Shown: positions 10,955 to 19,158 of the stretch, piece by piece
Layout of the letters: the number at the start of each line of letters is the position of its first letter
How positions within the stretch are numbered: position 1 is the stretch's first letter
Assembly (NCBI GenBank): GCA_041309745.1
Contig: JBFYYZ010000186.1
Span: 1-26,725 of the forward strand
Length of the DNA: 26,725 nucleotides
Source of the DNA: Bacillota bacterium
Lineage (GTDB): Bacteria; Bacillota; Dethiobacteria; DTU022
Direction of reading: 5' to 3'
The notes under the pieces: generated by a model
Databases searched by the model: none
Told to the model about the DNA's origin: nothing
The model's input: only the letters and a program-made list of their open reading frames with translations
Program-made: the position numbers and the translations under genes

Positions 10955-12496
10955 TTATAGCGGTATATTGCCGTGCTTACGCATCAACCGCTGTTCGCGC
11001 TTGTTCTCAACCATTTCGAGCCCCCGGATCAGGTAAGCCCGTGTCTGGCGAGGATCAATTACCTCATCGATCCAGCCCCGGGCTGCCGCAATGTAGGGGT
11101 TGGCATATTTATCCCGGTACTGCTGGACCAGTTCCTGCCGTTTGGCATCTTGATCTTCAGCCGCCTCCAACTCACGCCGGTTAACAATGTTGACCGCCCC
11201 TTCAGGGCCCATAACTGCAATTTCGGCAGTTGGCCAGGCCAGGCAGAGATCGGCGCCCAGCGAGCGGGAGTTCATGGCAATGTAGGCGCCGCCGTAGGCC
11301 TTTCGCAATATAACAGAAATCTGGGGCACAGTCGCTTCTGAATAAGCATAAAGCACTTTTGCCCCGTGGCGAATAATGCCACCCCATTCCTGTTCTACTC
11401 CGGGCAGGTAACCGGGCACATCAACAAAAGTGATCAGGGGCAGGTTGAAACAGTCGCAAAAGCGAACAAAGCGGGCAATCTTATCGGAAGAGTTTACATC
11501 AAGACACCCGGCTTTGAACATTGGCTGGTTGGCAATCACCCCGACCGGTTTGCCGCCGAGGCGGGCGAAACCGACGACCGCATTCTGGGCATAACCCTCA
11601 TGCACTTCCATCAGATCGCTATTATCGACAACCCTTTTTATTACATCACGCACATCATAAGAACGATTTGGATTGTCCGGCATAATCGTCAACAGCTCTT
11701 CCTGATTTAATTCAGGCTCGCTGAATACAGCCAGCGGTGGATCGTCAACGTTATTGGAGGGCAGAAAACTGAGCAGGCGGCGAATCTGGGCAAAACACTC
11801 TTCCTCCTGATCGGCGTAAAAATGAGCAACGCCACTGGTCTGGTTATGGGTAGCAGCGCCACCCAGTTCCTCGGCAGAGACCTCCTCCCCGGTTACCGCC
11901 TTGATTACCTGCGGTCCGGTAATAAACATATTACCGATCTTACTGACCATAAAAACAAAATCAGTGATCGCCGGAGAATAAACTGCGCCACCGGCACAGG
12001 GGCCCATGATCACCGAAAGCTGGGGGATAACCCCCGAGCATAAAGTGTTGCGGTAAAAGATCGATCCAAAACCGTTAAGCGAATAAACCCCTTCCTGGAT
12101 CCTCGCCCCCCCGGAATCGTTAAGCCCGATAACGGGAGCTCCGTTCTGGGCCGCCAGGTCCAAAACCCGGCAGATCTTGGCTGCATGGACTTCACCGAGC
12201 GAACCGCCGGCAACTGTAAAATCCTGGGCATAAATATAAACGCGGCGACCTTCAATTGTTCCGTAACCGCTAACCACCCCTTCACCGGGATTGGGGTATT
12301 CAAGCGAGCTGGCATCCTCCAAACCGGTCTGGGCAAAGGTGCCAATCTCTACAAAACTGCCCTCATCTAAGAGCTTGTTCAGCCTTTCCCTGGCTGTCAG
12401 CTTGCCTTTGGCATACTGGTCTTCAATTCTTTTTTCGCCGCCACCCGCCATGGTCCGGTTTCTTCGCGCTTCGAGGTGTTCTAGTTTATCTTTCAT
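10955..12496 (-). CDS. Acyl-CoA carboxyltransferase beta subunit (propionyl-CoA carboxylase / methylmalonyl-CoA decarboxylase alpha type)
   Basis: GKLTARER, QDFTVAGGSLG, NDSGGARIQEG, MGPCAGGAVYSPA, DVPGYLPG, RKAYGGAY, KHGNIPL. ATG at 12496 follows SD GGTGAG. The direction of the reaction cannot be read from sequence. Confidence 0.93.
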   Translation of the reverse strand: MKDKLEHLEARRNRTMAGGGEKRIEDQYAKGKLTARERLNKLLDEGSFVEIGTFAQTGLEDASSLEYPNPGEGVVSGYGTIEGRRVYIYAQDFTVAGGSLGEVHAAKICRVLDLAAQNGAPVIGLNDSGGARIQEGVYSLNGFGSIFYRNTLCSGVIPQLSVIMGPCAGGAVYSPAITDFVFMVSKIGNMFITGPQVIKAVTGEEVSAEELGGAATHNQTSGVAHFYADQEEECFAQIRRLLSFLPSNNVDDPPLAVFSEPELNQEELLTIMPDNPNRSYDVRDVIKRVVDNSDLMEVHEGYAQNAVVGFARLGGKPVGVIANQPMFKAGCLDVNSSDKIARFVRFCDCFNLPLITFVDVPGYLPGVEQEWGGIIRHGAKVLYAYSEATVPQISVILRKAYGGAYIAMNSRSLGADLCLAWPTAEIAVMGPEGAVNIVNRRELEAAEDQDAKRQELVQQYRDKYANPYIAAARGWIDEVIDPRQTRAYLIRGLEMVENKREQRLMRKHGNIPL

Positions 12497-12532
12497 AACA
12501 CTCACCGCTTTCTTCACGATTCTTAATACTGG

Positions 12533-12931
12533 TTAACGTTCACAAATCTCTATTAACACCCCGCCTGTTGATTTGGGATGCAAAAAGGCGATCTTTGCCC
12601 CACCTGCTCCGTAGCGTGGTTTTTGATCAATCAGCGCTACTCCCTGCTGCTTCAACTGCTCAAGTTTTTCTTCAATATTTGAGACCCTGAAGGATAAATG
12701 GTGTACGCCGCCGCCTTTTTTTTCAATAAACTTACCGACCGGGCCTTCAGGGTCGGTTGATTCCAATAGCTCAATCTTACTTTCGCCAACCGGTAAAAAA
12801 GCAACTTTAACTTTTTGCTCTTCAACTACCTCTATGCCTTTACAGTTTAGACCCAGTTGATCGCGGTATAGTTTTAGAGCTTCATCAAGACTGGCAACTG
12901 CGATCCCGATATGATCTACCTTCTCAAACAT
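12533..12931 (-). CDS. mce: Methylmalonyl-CoA epimerase (VOC fold)
   Basis: [32 protein letters not shown]; mutase context. Confidence 0.93.
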
Positions 12932-12948
12932 TTATATCCCCCCATCCC

Positions 12949-13350
12949 TTAACTTAATTCAAGTTTGTTCCTGATGAAATTAACAATATCCACTGTTGAT
13001 GAACCGGGTGTAAAAACTTCAGCCACTCCGTGTTCTTTCAGGTAAGCAATATCATCGCGGGGAATAATACCGCCAACAAGAACGATTATATCACTGCTCT
13101 CCTGCTCGCGCAGCATCTCAACCACCGGCGGGATTAATTGCATGTGCGCTCCGGACAAGATGCTTAAACCGATCACCTGGACATCTTCCTGCAGTGCCGT
13201 TTCCACAATTTGTTCCGGTGTCTGTCGCAAACCGGTATAGATAACCTCCATACCGGCGTCCCGCAACGCCTGGGCTACGACCTTCGCCCCGCGATCGTGG
13301 CCATCGAGGCCAATTTTACCGACCAGGACCCGAACCAGTTTATCGGACAT
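12949..13350 (-). CDS. Cobalamin-binding small subunit of a split methylmalonyl-CoA mutase
   Basis: DxHxxG motif in [11 protein letters not shown], plus GLSILSGAH and VGGIIP. ATG at 13350 follows SD GGAGG. Confidence 0.94.
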
Positions 13351-13401
13351 CGTACTACCTCCTTCGCGATTCAAACTGCATTTGCAGTTATCCGCTTCAA
13401 T

Positions 13402-15075
13402 TTAAATCGTGATCTGCTGCTGGTACTCACCAAATACATCACGCAAAACCCCGCAAATTTCACCGAGAGTGGCGTAAGCTTTTACCGCTTCGAATATCGC
13501 GGGCATCAGGTTATCGCTGCCCTGAGCAGCTCGCCTCAGTTCCTGCAGGGTTTCTGCCACTTTGGCCTGGTTACGGCTGAGTCTGACTTCTTTAAGCCGC
13601 TCTACCTGTCTCTGGCTGGTAGCGGGGTCCATTTTTAAAAGATCGATCGGCTGTTCACCGCTGATCGTAAAGCGGTTTACACCAACCACCACCCGCTCCT
13701 CTGATTCGATCTCTTTCTGGTAACGATAAGCGCTGGCCTGAATTTCTTTTTGAATATAGCCTTTTTCAATTGCTTCGACAGCACCGCCGATCTCATCGAT
13801 TTTATCAATATAGCTTAAAATATCGTTTTCAACCTGATCGGTCAGTTTCTCAATGAAATATGATCCGCCCAGCGGATCGACCGTGTCGGTAACCCCGATT
13901 TCATAGCCGATTACCTGCTGGGTGCGCAAAGCCAGCAGCACGGAAGGCTCGCTGGGTAAAGCGAGCGCTTCGTCACGCGAATTGGTATGCAGTGATTGAG
14001 TGCCACCTAATACCGCGCTAAGCGCCTGGTAGGCTACACGCATCAGGTTAACGTCAGGCTGCTGGGCTGTCAGGGTGGAGCCTGCCGTCTGGGTGTGGAA
14101 CCGCAGCATCATCGAGCGCGGGTTTTTGGCTCCAAAACGTTCTTTCATCAGGCGGGCCCAAATCCTTCTGGCCGCCCTGAATTTTGCAATTTCTTCAAAA
14201 AAGTTCGAGTGGGCATTAAAGAAGAAGGATAAACGGGGAGCAAACTGGTCCACTTCCAGCCCCGCGGCTACTGCCGCTTCAACATAGGCAATGGCATTGC
14301 CCAGGGTAAAAGCCACTTCCTGGACCGCCGTGGAACCGGCCTCACGAATGTGATAGCCGCTGATGCTAATCGTATTCCAGTTTGGAATCATTTTGCCGGC
14401 ATAGGCAAAGATGTCAATAATAATGCGCATCGATTCCCGTGGCGGGAAAATGTAGGTGCCCCGGGCAACATATTCCTTTAAAATATCATTCTGGATGGTG
14501 CCGTTGAGCTGTTCCATCGCAATACCCTGTTTTTCGGCCACCGCCATATACATAGCCAGCAATACCACAGCCGGAGAATTGATCGTCATTGAGGTGCTGA
14601 CCTTGTCAAGGGGGATTTGATCCATCAAAATCTCCATATCCGCGAGCGAATCGATCGCCACCCCCACTTTACCCACTTCGCCGCGGGCCAGGGGGTGATC
14701 CGAGTCGTATCCGATCTGGGTCGGTAGATCAAATGCTACACTGAGGCCGGTTTGACCCTGCTCCAGCAGATAGCGAAACCTTTCGTTGGTTTCTTCAGCG
14801 CTGCCAAAGCCCGCGTACTGACGCATGGTCCAGAGGCGCCCGCGGTACATGGTCGGTTGAATCCCCCGTGTATAGGGATACTCACCCGGCCAGTTAAGCT
14901 GTTCTTGGTACTTAAATGATTCCAAATCCAGGGTATCGTAGACCCTTTCGATCTCATAGTCAGAATCAGTCTTGAATGTTTTGCTTTCCGGGTGCTTTTC
15001 CAAAGATTTATTTACTTTTTCACACCAGGCCTCTTTTGCTGCAGCGAGCTCCGTATTATTCTGCTGCTCACTCAT
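13402..15075 (-). CDS. Methylmalonyl-CoA mutase, substrate-binding (TIM barrel) subunit
   Basis: [53 protein letters not shown] at 15075 follows SD AAGGAGG. 557 aa. Confidence 0.95.
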
Positions 15076-15112
15076 TGTTGCTTCAGCCTCCTTTCTGATC
15101 ACCCAAAAATAC

Positions 15113-15979
15113 TTAAACTTTTTCTTTGATAAACCTGACAATTTCATCGGGTAAAGCCGCAACTTTAACCCCGGCTGCGGTAAGCGCTTTTACTTTACCG
15201 TCAAAGGTCCCTTTACCCCTCTCGATAATCGCCCCGGCATGGCCCATTCTTTTGCCCGGAGGAGCGCTTTTCCCAGCCAGGTAAGCGACAACCGGTTTAC
15301 TGATTTCCCTGGCAATAAATTCTGCCGCTTCTTCCTCGGCGCTGCCACCGATTTCTCCAACCAGCACAATCGCTTTCGTTTCCGGATCGGCTTCAAACTG
15401 TTTTAAAACATCGATAAAGTGCAAGCCAACCACCCGGTCTCCGCCAAGGCCGACTACGGTTGTGGTCCCGGTTTGATTGGCCGTCAGATGGCCAACTATT
15501 TCATAACAGAGGGTTCCACTGCGCGAAACCACCCCGACCGGACCGGGAATAAAATACTTGTTAGGCATAATGCCGATTTTGCAGTGACCCGATGAAACAA
15601 GGCCGAAAGTATTGGGGCCAACTACCACAGCATCCTTGGTTTTAGCATAAGCCATGATATCCATCGCATCATGAAGCGGGATATGTTCAGGGATCAGCAC
15701 CACTAGTTTAATACCGGCATCCAAAGCCTCAAGCGCGGCATCGCGGGCAAAGGGCGCAGGAATAAACAGAATCGATGCTTCAGCAGGCTGTTTCTCCATC
15801 GCTTCGAAGACTGTATCAAAAACCGGTACCCCTTCAACACTCTGCCCGCCTTTGCCCGGCGATACTCCTCCGACAATTCCGGTGCCGTACTCCAGCATCT
15901 GCCCGGTATGAAACGAGCCCTGTTTTCCCGTAATGCCCTGAACCAGGACCCGGGTCTGCTTATTTATGTAAATAGCCAT
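15113..15979 (-). CDS. sucD: Succinyl-CoA synthetase alpha subunit
   Basis: [28 protein letters not shown], phospho-His motif KRMGHAG. Confidence 0.93.
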
Positions 15980-16060
15980 TTAAACTACTCCTTTCAAACT
16001 TTTTGTCTGACCAACCTGAATCTTAAAAATTCAGGTAAACCATAATGCGGGAACGAGCGG

Positions 16061-17170
16061 TTAGTAAGCTTTGGCAGATTCCACTGCCTGGCGCACCGCA
16101 TCATCCATGGTGCTGAAAACCCTGATCCCTGCATTTTCTAAGATTGCCTTTCCTTCAGTTTCGTTGGTCCCAACGAGGCGAAATGATACAGGAAGATCAA
16201 ACCCTTTGCTTTCCCTGACCTTGATAAAAGCTTCAGCCACCACATCGCAGCGAGTAATACCGCCAAAAATGTTGATTAAAAGCACCTTGGGGTTGGTGCC
16301 AAGCAGAAGTTCAAGGGCCTGGGAAGTTCTTTCCACATCTGCCCCGCCCCCGAAGTCAAGGAAGTTAGCAGGCTGCCCGCCATAATGCTCCACGATATCA
16401 AGAGTAGCCATGGTAATCCCGGCACCGTTGGCCATGATCGCAATGTTGCCATCGAGTTCAACATAGGCCAGGTCAAGTTCTTCAGCGCGCAGCTCGAGAG
16501 CGGTTTTCTCCTTGATCTTCGGCAGGGTGGGATGGCGGTATAGTGCATCATCGTCGATGGTCACCTTGGCATCGGCCGCCACCAGGCCCTGCGGAGTGAC
16601 CGCCAGGGGGTTAATTTCAGCCAGTTCGGCATCCAGATCCCGGAAAAGCTGATACAGCTTGGGCATAAAAGATAAAAATTCTTTTTGCAGGCTGCCGCTT
16701 ACGCCCAGCCGGCGGCATATTTCACGGACCGTATAATCCTGCATGCCGATAGAAATATCGACAGGCCATTTAATCATCCGCTCTTCCGGAACATCCTCGA
16801 TATCCATTCCGCCGTCTAATGAGGCAAGGACGATCGGTCTTTTGGTTGAACCATCAACGGTCAAAGCCAGGTACAGTTCCTGTTCAATTTGCAGTTTTTC
16901 TTCAACCAGCAGTTTTTCCACGACCAGATCGTTTAGTTTCATTTGCAGAATACGTCCGGCCTCTTCACGGGCCTGATCCGGGCTGGAAGCAAAGGAGATA
17001 CCCCCTGCTTTGCCCCTTTTGCCGCTTAAAACCTGGGATTTAATAACCACATCACCCAGTCCGGCAGCAACCTCAGCAGCTTCTTCTGCGCTAGCCACAA
17101 CTTTACCGCGCGGTACCGGGATGCCATATTCCTTAAAAAGTTCTTTACCAAGATACTCATAAAGTTTCAA
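16061..17170 (-). CDS. sucC: Succinyl-CoA synthetase beta subunit
   Basis: MKLYEY.GK, RGKAGG, EINPL, NGAGITMAT.D, ANFLDFGGG, NIFGGITRCD. TTG start with SD GGAGG. Confidence 0.93.
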   Translation of the reverse strand: MKLYEYLGKELFKEYGIPVPRGKVVASAEEAAEVAAGLGDVVIKSQVLSGKRGKAGGISFASSPDQAREEAGRILQMKLNDLVVEKLLVEEKLQIEQELYLALTVDGSTKRPIVLASLDGGMDIEDVPEERMIKWPVDISIGMQDYTVREICRRLGVSGSLQKEFLSFMPKLYQLFRDLDAELAEINPLAVTPQGLVAADAKVTIDDDALYRHPTLPKIKEKTALELRAEELDLAYVELDGNIAIMANGAGITMATLDIVEHYGGQPANFLDFGGGADVERTSQALELLLGTNPKVLLINIFGGITRCDVVAEAFIKVRESKGFDLPVSFRLVGTNETEGKAILENAGIRVFSTMDDAVRQAVESAKAY

Positions 17171-17199: not shown

Positions 17200-18888
17200 C
17201 TAACTGCTGTATTTTTTCAGTTTATTATACAGAGTAGCGAGGGAAATATTCAAGGCCTGGGCCGCTTTTTTCTTGCCTTCCAGGTTTTCGCCATACCTGG
17301 TCAGAGCTAATTTAAGCATTTTTTCTTCCATCTTTTCAAGTGGCACGATCTCCTCAAAATCAGAGAGGTCATGTAAACCAAGGCGCCCAATGTAAGGCAG
17401 CAGATGATGGTATTCGATAACCGGTCCGTCTGCTTCAATCATCGCCCGCTCCAGGGCGCTCTTCAGTTCGCTGATATTGCCCGGCCACTCGTAGGCCATC
17501 AACTCCTGCATCGCCCTGGCCGAAATCTCATTAACTGACCTGCCAAGTTTGCGGTTAAGCCCGGCCATCAAATCTTCCGCCAGCAGCGGGATGTCATCCT
17601 GGCGCTTGCGCAGTGGCGGCAGATCAATCGACACCAGGCTCAGCTTGCGGTAAAGTTCTTCAGAAAAGTAGCCCTTGTAAGAGGCATCGAGCAGGTTTTC
17701 TCCGGCGGAAGCAACAATCCGTACATCGGTCGGAATCTCCTGTTCTCCGCCAATCCTGACAAATGAATGCTGCTCTAAAACTTGAAGCAGTTTTTTCTGT
17801 AGGAAAGGGTTCAGGGAATTGATTTCTTTGACAAAAAGGGTGCTTCCTTCAGCCAGTTCAAGCTTGCCCAGCCTGGTCCTCAAGATGCCCGGCATTGCTC
17901 CTTTTTCACAACCGAAAAGTTCTATCTCCTGCAGGGAATCAGGAACTGACGAACAATCAAAAACTATTAAGGGGCGCTTATTCCGTGAACTGCCACTGTG
18001 AATGGCCCGGGCAAAGAGGCTTTTACCGGTTCCGCTTTCACCGCTGATTAAAAGAGAGGATTCACTGCGCGCCGCCTTGCGGGCCTTTTCAACAGCAGCA
18101 CAAAAAATTCTACTTTGCCCGATTAGCATCTCAAAACTGCACCTGAATCCAGAAATCTGGTCAATCTGAGCATAGAGGTTATCAATAATCGTATTGCTGT
18201 GTTTCAACTCGTCCATCAGTTTTAAGATATCGCCAACCGACTGAAACACAACCACCGCTCCCATTATTTCACCATCAACAACAATCGGTGAAGCATTGGA
18301 GATGACGTCAGCGGCCGATCCGCCTACATAGGTCCGGTATCCGGTAACCGGTTTATGCTGGATTAAAGCCTGGGCGAGAGCACCATGGGGCGATACATCG
18401 AAGATCGAGCGGTTAATTCTTTTCTGCTCAGGGATTCCTGTAACCCGGCTGAAAGCCGGATTAACATACTTGATGATGCCCTTGGCATCAACCACCTCTA
18501 CTGCATCCTGGACCGAGTTTAGGATCGCCAGCAGCTCGCCTTTCAACAACCTGGTTTCTAAAAGTTTTTCGCGGGAACTGAAAATTGCATGCAGCACTGA
18601 ACCCGGAATCAATTGTTCATACTTAACATTTTTATTAATTCTCTGTCGCAGATATTCCCCGACCTTTGGTACGCCGGTTCCATCGATCACTGCGTCGAGT
18701 TCGCTCAGGGCGGTAACTTTATCCAGATCAGCGGTGATGAAATATTGCTTGCGTTCTAAATCCGATAACCAGTCGATCACACCGTCGGGGCAGGCCAGGG
18801 CAACCAACTCCAGTTCCGGGCATTGTTCGAGAAAATGAAACAGGTCCGGACCTTGATCACCACGGAGGACAAGGGCTGTTTTGATCAA
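17200..18888 (-). CDS. PAS-AAA+-Fis HTH transcriptional regulator (bEBP architecture) with degenerate sigma54-activation motifs
   Basis: PAS region (VEVVDAKGIIKYVNPAF), Walker A GESGTGKS, WPGNI.EL, C-terminal HTH AAQALNISLATLYNKLKKY. GAFTGA reads GAMPGI and Walker B reads LFVKE. Confidence 0.88.
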   Translation of the reverse strand: MIKTALVLRGDQGPDLFHFLEQCPELELVALACPDGVIDWLSDLERKQYFITADLDKVTALSELDAVIDGTGVPKVGEYLRQRINKNVKYEQLIPGSVLHAIFSSREKLLETRLLKGELLAILNSVQDAVEVVDAKGIIKYVNPAFSRVTGIPEQKRINRSIFDVSPHGALAQALIQHKPVTGYRTYVGGSAADVISNASPIVVDGEIMGAVVVFQSVGDILKLMDELKHSNTIIDNLYAQIDQISGFRCSFEMLIGQSRIFCAAVEKARKAARSESSLLISGESGTGKSLFARAIHSGSSRNKRPLIVFDCSSVPDSLQEIELFGCEKGAMPGILRTRLGKLELAEGSTLFVKEINSLNPFLQKKLLQVLEQHSFVRIGGEQEIPTDVRIVASAGENLLDASYKGYFSEELYRKLSLVSIDLPPLRKRQDDIPLLAEDLMAGLNRKLGRSVNEISARAMQELMAYEWPGNISELKSALERAMIEADGPVIEYHHLLPYIGRLGLHDLSDFEEIVPLEKMEEKMLKLALTRYGENLEGKKKAAQALNISLATLYNKLKKYSS

Positions 18889-18921
18889 AAGCTAACGCTC
18901 CTTCCTTCTTCACCTTAGAAT

Positions 18922-18948
18922 ATTCGTAAAAATTAGAAGAAATCCTGC
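18922..18948 (-). promoter_or_regulatory. sigmaH-type promoter for the regulator-suc-mutase cluster
   Basis: GCAGGATTT (18948-18940), N12, ACGAAT (18927-18922). AGGA and GAAT are 17 nt apart, matching the Bacillota sigmaH consensus. Confidence 0.65.
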
Positions 18949-19071: not shown

Positions 19072-19158
19072 GCGGGCGTGGCGGAACTGGCAGACGCGCT
19101 GGACTTAGGATCCAGTGGGAGCAATCCTGTGGAGGTTCAAATCCTCTCGCCCGCACCA
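19072..19158 (+). tRNA. tRNA-Leu (anticodon TAG), CCA encoded
   Basis: Acceptor GCGGGCG/CGCCCGC, D arm GCGGAACTGGCAGACGC, anticodon stem CTGGA-CTTAGGA-TCCAG, long variable arm, T loop TTCAAAT, terminal ACCA. Confidence 0.97.

Follow-up and report, generated by a model that had tools for sequence, protein, structure and literature searches.

The transcription factor TyrR works without sigma-54, its AAA+ domain driving ligand- or nucleotide-dependent oligomerisation at operators that overlap promoters, and it retains Walker B and hydrolyses ATP. The established atypical, sigma-54-independent enhancer-binding proteins (EBPs) comprise TyrR, PhhR, HupR, HsfA, NtrX and VpsR; VpsR of Vibrio cholerae and NtrX of Brucella have no GAFTGA motif and a non-consensus Walker B, VpsR functioning with sigma-70 RNA polymerase and NtrX as a repressor (PMC6158489). 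The NtrC proteins of Rhodobacter capsulatus and Caulobacter have a bacterial EBP (bEBP) scaffold without the L1 GAFTGA loop and serve sigma-70 promoters (Caulobacter NtrC preprint), and PrdR is an activator of the sigma-54 promoters of the prd genes (PMC6615313). Here we describe REG, a regulator encoded at 17200-18888 on the minus strand of contig JBFYYZ010000186.1 from a Bacillota bacterium; the whole stretch analysed, 26,725 nt, is referred to below as the window. We consider it probable that REG is a sigma-54-independent, hydrolysis-dead descendant of the bEBPs that is dedicated to regulating its own operon, REG-sucCD-mcm-epimerase-carboxyltransferase. A literature search turned up no paper on the REG family, nor any that treats a regulator for the mmc cluster of Pelotomaculum.

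According to the open reading frame (ORF) call and its translation, REG is one uninterrupted frame of 562 codons with the start codon TTG. Motif equivalence was established by HMMER alignments of REG to NifA and NtrC1, complemented by family alignments. Six functional sites of a sigma-54 activator are replaced in REG, and Walker A is retained. In translation and in the hidden Markov model (HMM) alignments, the L1 loop reads GAMPGI for GAFTGA, with both Phe and Thr replaced (17884-17901; this and the following features are on the minus strand), Walker B reads LFVKEI opposite FLDEIG, with Lys in the place of Asp (17821-17838), and the arginine-finger segment reads FSEELYRKL opposite FREDLYYRL, with Ser in the place of Arg (17641-17667). 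A preliminary description of the locus had already recorded these three replacements, starting the arginine-finger segment one codon short, as well as the intact Walker A, GESGTGKS (18019-18042), in which G283, G286, G288 and K289 do not vary among 68 relatives. Its list of motifs was right as far as it went and overlooked the degenerate N-terminal GxGxxG and three further sites: the glutamate-switch Asn, which is Asp in REG (FDC for the canonical VNC, 17956-17958), the sensor I region, which reads ASAGE for AATNR, so that ATN has become SAG (17698-17712), and sensor II, where ISEL stands for [VI]REL with Arg changed to Ser (17464-17475), within WPGNISELKS opposite WPGNVRELEN. Known tolerated variants of GAFTGA are GSFTGA, GAYTGA and GAFSGA (PMC6615313). 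Given these replacements, and in agreement with the preliminary description, REG cannot plausibly act as a sigma-54 activator, and from the same residues we infer that it is a hydrolysis-dead 'pseudo-ATPase'. The annotation 'sigma-54 interacting transcriptional regulator' is misleading for the REG family.

The other bEBPs of the same organism serve as an internal control. The source is a metagenome-assembled genome (MAG) of an uncultured organism, 1.57 Mb in size and 75% complete, in which six further bEBP genes were found, one of them a partial frame covering only the motifs from Walker B on. All keep GAFTGA/GSFTGA, DE (DD in one), ATN/ASN, FRxDL and [VI]REL, and one has Ser at the position of the glutamate-switch Asn (ISC). 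The five full-length proteins score 227-246 bits against PF00158, compared to 166 bits for REG. The presence of rpoN was a point that the preliminary description had left to be checked; the gene is encoded in the MAG, and perfect -24/-12 promoters of the form TGGCAC-N5-TTGCT occur elsewhere in it, one of them directly downstream of a canonical bEBP gene. Since six bEBPs of the same MAG keep the motifs, and since both rpoN and sigma-54 promoters are present, the motif losses in REG are not attributable to noise or chance.

The replaced motifs are widely shared. More than 100 proteins of about 562 aa with 50-100% identity to REG are found in public metagenomes, and the replacements are common to more than 60 orthologues (55-100% identity) from dozens of uncultured Bacillota, the prevailing strings in a 68-sequence alignment being GA[ML]PG[IV], F[IV]KE[IV], FSEE and ISEL. 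The ratio of nonsynonymous to synonymous substitution rates (dN/dS) of REG between close orthologue pairs is 0.04-0.08 (Nei-Gojobori), equal to that of the neighbouring enzyme genes; pooled by domain it is 0.128 for the N-terminal domain, 0.024 for PAS, 0.047 for AAA+, 0.030 for the lid and 0.019 for the helix-turn-helix (HTH). The gene is thus under strong purifying selection and the substitutions are not private to this strain, in agreement with the preliminary description. It would be extremely improbable that REG is a decaying gene, or that it remains an ordinary sigma-54 activator whose loop is unusual, as the intact P-loop and one internally deleted copy might suggest. The deleted copy, in a soda-lake MAG (L049:695-1441), consists of a 106-aa N-terminal frame followed by a 125-aa frame joining the Walker A/L1 region to the HTH; PAS and most of AAA+ are deleted, the downstream sucCD-mcm operon is intact, and the deletion could be a real loss or a misassembly. 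The frame is, however, intact in all 32 GTDB loci holding the whole gene and broken in L049 only, one of 40 loci, and because the substitutions are common to more than 60 orthologues under a dN/dS of about 0.05, REG is not a decaying gene. A conventional role is opposed by the six replaced catalytic or contact positions, by the conservation of the replacements themselves and by the lack of a -24/-12 element.

Downstream of REG and co-oriented with it lie sucC, sucD and the genes for the large and B12 subunits of methylmalonyl-CoA mutase (mcm), an epimerase and a carboxyltransferase (10955-17170, minus strand). Of the 38 GTDB loci that reach the 3' end of REG, 37 have sucC 25-62 nt after it (116 nt in one), and sucD, both mutase subunits, epimerase and carboxyltransferase come next as far as the contigs reach, often followed by argC. 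Three further relatives' loci beyond the GTDB set have the same synteny, and the lone exception is L049 with its deleted REG. The suggested link to propionyl-/methylmalonyl-CoA metabolism is thereby borne out, and REG bears on the control of the methylmalonyl-CoA (succinate/propionate) pathway in uncultured anaerobes. The gap between REG and sucC in the window is only 29 nt, so that there is no room for a terminator or promoter, and a scan of the window found no -24/-12 element there, as the preliminary description had stated, nor upstream of REG.

Several candidate promoters for this operon were considered and set aside. A scan of the window and 45 related loci for a sigma-54 promoter returned, at 8/11 positions or more, only weak and non-conserved matches; one of the weak candidates, TGGAAAAAAGAATGCA, about 80 nt upstream of REG, is not shared by the orthologues. 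A consensus scan for a SigA promoter upstream of REG found none. Within the HTH codons, about 50 nt ahead of sucC, there is a sigma-70-like match, TTGAAT-18-TATAAT (10/12; 17224-17253, minus strand), whose hexamers vary at synonymous sites among 41 orthologues (TATAAT in 25, TATAAC in 14); for this reason it is probably a by-product of Leu-Asn/Tyr-Asn codons, and it could nonetheless give REG-independent transcription of sucC in this strain.

Upstream of REG lies a near-invariant element of about 37 nt, GCAGGAtTTCTTCTAAtATTTACGAATATTCTAAGGT (18912-18948, minus strand), which the preliminary description had missed and which is a candidate REG operator. It has the form AGGA-N17-GAAT with an invariant spacer, which includes two AATATT repeats 10 bp apart (AATATT-N4-AATATT) and two TTCTAA. 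In 36 loci, among them some with a REG of no more than 50-55% identity, virtually all of the ~37 positions show at least 90% conservation, and the flanks of the element are unconserved. Exactly one copy of the 25-nt core is present in each of 17 of 31 relatives, which belong to several families, and the element is single-copy in the MAG too, which excludes a regulon of further copies. Wherever the core and REG are on the same contig, REG starts 24-53 nt downstream of the core, and the core was not found in genomes without a REG orthologue. Rfam reported only a tRNA-Leu between 16900 and 19400, and since the conserved block ends near the predicted +1, it is better understood as a DNA than as an RNA element.

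The sequence AGGA-N17/18-GAAT is the form of SigH promoter reported for Sporomusa, B. subtilis and C. difficile (PMC12456013). Among upstream regions of the MAG, AGGA-Nk-GAAT was found 16 times at k=17, 8 times at k=18 and 1-5 times at other spacings, and a reversed-sequence control had no spacing peak. Several of the AGGA-N17/18-GAAT sites start with GCAGGA like the REG promoter, and the list constitutes a candidate SigH regulon of the MAG. A sigH gene scoring above the equivalog cut-off is carried by 24 of 31 relatives and by 5 of 6 same-genus genomes, and there is no Spo0A_C (PF08769) match in 7 genomes of the genus (G000, G001-G006), several of them 95-98% complete. Because SigH seems to be kept in the genus without Spo0A, the master regulator of sporulation, a non-sporulation and possibly metabolic role of SigH is suggested. 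The spacer of the REG element is not shared by the other SigH-type promoters of the MAG. Promoter function alone does not explain an invariant spacer, and with its AATATT and TTCTAA repeats the spacer would be well suited as the operator bound by the HTH (LEGKKKAAQALNISLATLYNKLKKY), which is just as invariant. Being strongly conserved, first in its operon and placed behind a near-invariant SigH-type promoter, REG is best regarded as a working, repurposed regulator and not as a dying gene.

The following model may be proposed. REG would bind the invariant spacer and the -10 region of its own promoter by means of its near-invariant HTH and repress transcription of its own operon, which amounts to negative autoregulation. 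A metabolite sensed by the PAS domain would release REG or alter its oligomeric state, thereby relieving repression. The AAA+ ring, as in TyrR, would have been kept for oligomerisation and possibly for nucleotide binding without hydrolysis. What makes repression the most likely sign is the location of the site within the core promoter, where it covers the spacer, the -10 box and approximately +1.

The main rival to repression, possible but rather unlikely, is that REG is a sigma-54-independent activator that recruits or remodels SigH- or SigA-RNA polymerase at the same element, with positive autoregulation; VpsR or TyrR at activated promoters and a spacer binder of the MerR type would be its models. 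Most characterised atypical EBPs do activate sigma-70 promoters (PMC6158489), and the conservation of the element and of the HTH fits this alternative equally well. However, the invariant block spans the spacer, the -10 and roughly +1 instead of lying upstream of the -35, a placement typical of repression, and the weak TTG with which the operon's first gene begins suits a low-level repressor, though this is not decisive.

A second alternative, which we hold to be improbable, leaves REG to act elsewhere or only to sense, the element being bound by another protein or simply constrained as a promoter. The element also stands before a relative of REG (P0114) with near-canonical motifs, and no covariation between HTH and element was found, because both are invariant. 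Yet the occurrence of the element is strictly tied to that of REG, with a single copy per genome, and the spacer is absent from the other SigH-type promoters of the genome.

The preliminary description had further envisaged REG as a dominant-negative partner. A heteromeric REG that poisons or modulates the rings of an active bEBP would agree with the loss of the arginine finger and L1 loop in a protein that probably still oligomerises, and at least six canonical bEBPs in the MAG might provide the partner. This idea fares poorly and is highly unlikely to hold: REG possesses its own DNA-binding domain with a near-invariant HTH, its own single-copy cis element and a tight linkage to one operon; its recognition helix is shared by no paralogue in the incomplete MAG, and the operon has no sigma-54 promoter.

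Several observations weigh against autorepression by REG at the SigH-type element. A search of the MAG itself, which is 75% complete, found no sigH. The element upstream of P0114 precedes a gene whose ATPase and L1 motifs are nearly canonical; it is for this reason no marker of ATPase loss by itself, and another factor could bind it. The repeats of the spacer are only imperfectly symmetric, and the GAAT box is spoiled by an inserted A in the G018/L052 lineage. REG may be dispensable in the L049 lineage, where it is deleted and the operon intact. Finally, it is only from the position of the operator that we infer the regulatory sign of REG.

In a maximum-likelihood tree (SH-aLRT support of 95-100 on the relevant nodes) the REG clade is nested inside relatives of the same four-domain architecture, and the motifs change stepwise along the tree. 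P0122-P0125 are fully canonical, with GxGxxG, VNC, GAFTGA, FLDEI, ATN, FRED and IREL. P0114 and P0117 have GSFTGA and have lost the glutamate-switch Asn; P0115-P0121 have lost GxGxxG and carry GAFSGA and FLDNL; P0118 carries GAYPGA and FIKGV; and P0104 carries GALPGA, FIKNI and ISEL. The other sequences, about 59, have GA[ML]PG[IV] (GAL[TS]GV in one six-member subclade), mostly FSEE, mostly ISEL, and a Walker B of the form [LIVMF]K[EG][ILV], mostly F[IV]KE[IV]. As read from these sequences, the tree shows an apparent order of loss in which GxGxxG and the glutamate-switch Asn would have gone first, then the Glu of Walker B, then the Asp of Walker B together with L1, and last sensor II and the arginine finger.

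The genomic context is shared along this series. P0114, P0121, P0110 and P0122 are directly upstream of sucCD and mcm, P0123 is located after a fumarase gene, and the canonical P0124 is located after sdhCAB, upstream of which stands a strong sigma-54 promoter, TTGGCAT-GGATC-TTGCT (TTGGCATGGATCTTGCT, at 823-839 within the examined region L060:620-850). From the canonical relatives, the shared metabolic context and the sigma-54 promoter at P0124 it follows that the original members of the family were sigma-54 activators serving C4-dicarboxylate and propionate metabolism. Upstream of the sigma-54 promoter at the P0124 locus there is a perfect palindrome, ATTCTAA-AAA-TTAGAAT, at a distance of about 190 nt, and a copy of one half-site at about 60 nt. 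The palindrome is similar to TTCTAA-TAT-TTAcGAA of the REG element and may represent the ancestral upstream activating sequence of the REG family, a lead that comes from one locus. At the locus of the canonical P0122 (L055, 13.9 kb) no convincing -24/-12 element was found, and an AGGA-N17-GAAT match is seen at L055:5907-5931, within the 113-nt gap between the REG relative and sucC. The switch to a SigH-type promoter apparently predates the decay of the ATPase, so that the departure from sigma-54 would have come first and the stepwise decay of the ATPase motifs after it. Graded living intermediates in the same genomic context offer a testable model for how AAA+ activators become passive oligomeric regulators.

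The domain layout of REG is that of a Rossmann-like/PAS/AAA+/HTH regulator of 562 aa. The PAS domain identified by Pfam (residues 119-216, 18241-18534, minus strand as for the other domains) is one of the two most constrained parts of the protein. The AAA+ core (Sigma54_activat, residues 255-421, 17626-18126) matches PF00158 with 162.7 bits against a cut-off of 20.2, followed by AAA_lid_14 (residues 427-500) and by a Fis-type HTH (HTH_8, residues 517-560, 17209-17340), which scores 21.3 bits, slightly below the cut-off of 22, and carries the near-invariant sequence given above. The full-length model has a predicted local distance difference test (pLDDT) score of 80.6, and its AAA+ core superposes on NtrC1 with a root-mean-square deviation of 1.7-1.8 A; the AAA+ fold of REG is thus predicted to be intact.

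The N-terminal domain (residues 1-97, 18598-18888) was correctly described as Rossmann-like from the outset. There is no Pfam match in the first ~100 residues of REG itself, and NAD_binding_3 (PF03447) is matched by 19 of 35 orthologue N-termini. The AlphaFold (AF2) model of residues 1-112 is a beta-alpha-beta, Rossmann-like fold with a pLDDT of 89, and Foldseek places NAD-binding domains at the top of its PDB matches (best 1nvm_F, E 7e-4), the neighbours being those of DmpF, DAP dehydrogenase, homoserine dehydrogenase and Gfo/Idh/MocA enzymes. The dinucleotide-binding loop and the acidic residue after beta2 are not kept in REG, where GxGxxG is degenerate (LRGDQGP) and the Asp of beta2 is Cys (LACPDG); canonical relatives retain VGAGDEG or VGGGIRG and VAD at these positions. 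As an endpoint of such changes, it is conceivable but doubtful that the P-loop, with Lys for the Mg-binding Asp, and/or the degenerate Rossmann domain were repurposed to sense the ADP moiety of an acyl-CoA instead of ATP or NAD, in which case succinyl-, methylmalonyl- or propionyl-CoA may be the ligand. If true, REG would be a directly acyl-CoA-gated AAA+ transcription factor.

The TTG at 18886-18888 is the start of REG in the window and in each orthologue whose start is displayed, and sucC in the window also starts with TTG. Among the 33 REG orthologues tabulated, 26 have a leucine-coded start, four GTG and three ATG. A Shine-Dalgarno sequence, GGAAGGAG (18898-18905, minus strand), lies 9 nt ahead of the TTG. 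A divergent tRNA-Leu gene (anticodon TAG) is found at 19072-19158 on the plus strand, about 120 nt upstream of the REG promoter element; across the ~40 kb of related loci examined, tRNA-Leu, EamA, BFN and DegV are neighbours of REG only in its closest relatives.

With TyrR of E. coli and with PhhR, both of them EBP-like and dependent on sigma-70, REG shares the one-component sensor-PAS-AAA+-HTH layout and the lack of a functional GAFTGA. It is not a TyrR orthologue, since the NCBIfam model of TyrR (NF008085) aligns to residues 119-561 with 210.9 bits against a cut-off of 576; moreover, the N-terminus is an ACT domain in TyrR and Rossmann-like in REG, the REG promoter is SigH-like, and REG, unlike TyrR, has lost the Walker B Asp, sensor I, sensor II and the arginine finger. 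VpsR and NtrX have in common with REG an absent GAFTGA and a non-consensus Walker B, but they are response regulators of Proteobacteria with REC domains, and VpsR requires cyclic di-GMP (c-di-GMP), whereas REG, which comes from Bacillota, has a one-component Rossmann/PAS architecture and a wider catalytic loss. The NtrC proteins of Rhodobacter and Caulobacter have a deleted loop but still depend in some way on binding or hydrolysing ATP; in REG, by contrast, the loop has the same length with substituted residues, and the hydrolysis residues are gone. The best NCBIfam match of REG is PrdR (NF041552, 313 bits over residues 118-560), a clostridial sigma-54 activator which has the same PAS-AAA+-HTH core, followed by TyrR, NifA, AtoC and others. 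REG is nevertheless not PrdR, in view of the cut-off of 795 bits, the neighbouring sucCD and mcm, and the lack of sigma-54 motifs and of a sigma-54 promoter. Closest are the canonical relatives P0122-P0125, which have the four domains of REG and nearly the same HTH beside genes of succinate, fumarate and methylmalonyl-CoA metabolism; unlike REG, they keep GxGxxG, GAFTGA, DE, ATN, FRED and IREL, and P0124 adjoins a good sigma-54 promoter. Most of what is known about atypical EBPs comes from a few proteobacterial proteins, to which REG, orthologous to none of the established ones, adds a large, well-conserved family from Bacillota. Judged from its sequence and context, this family appears to differ from the known atypical EBPs in phylum and architecture, in the completeness of the catalytic loss, in its apparent SigH-type promoter and in its graded, syntenic intermediates.

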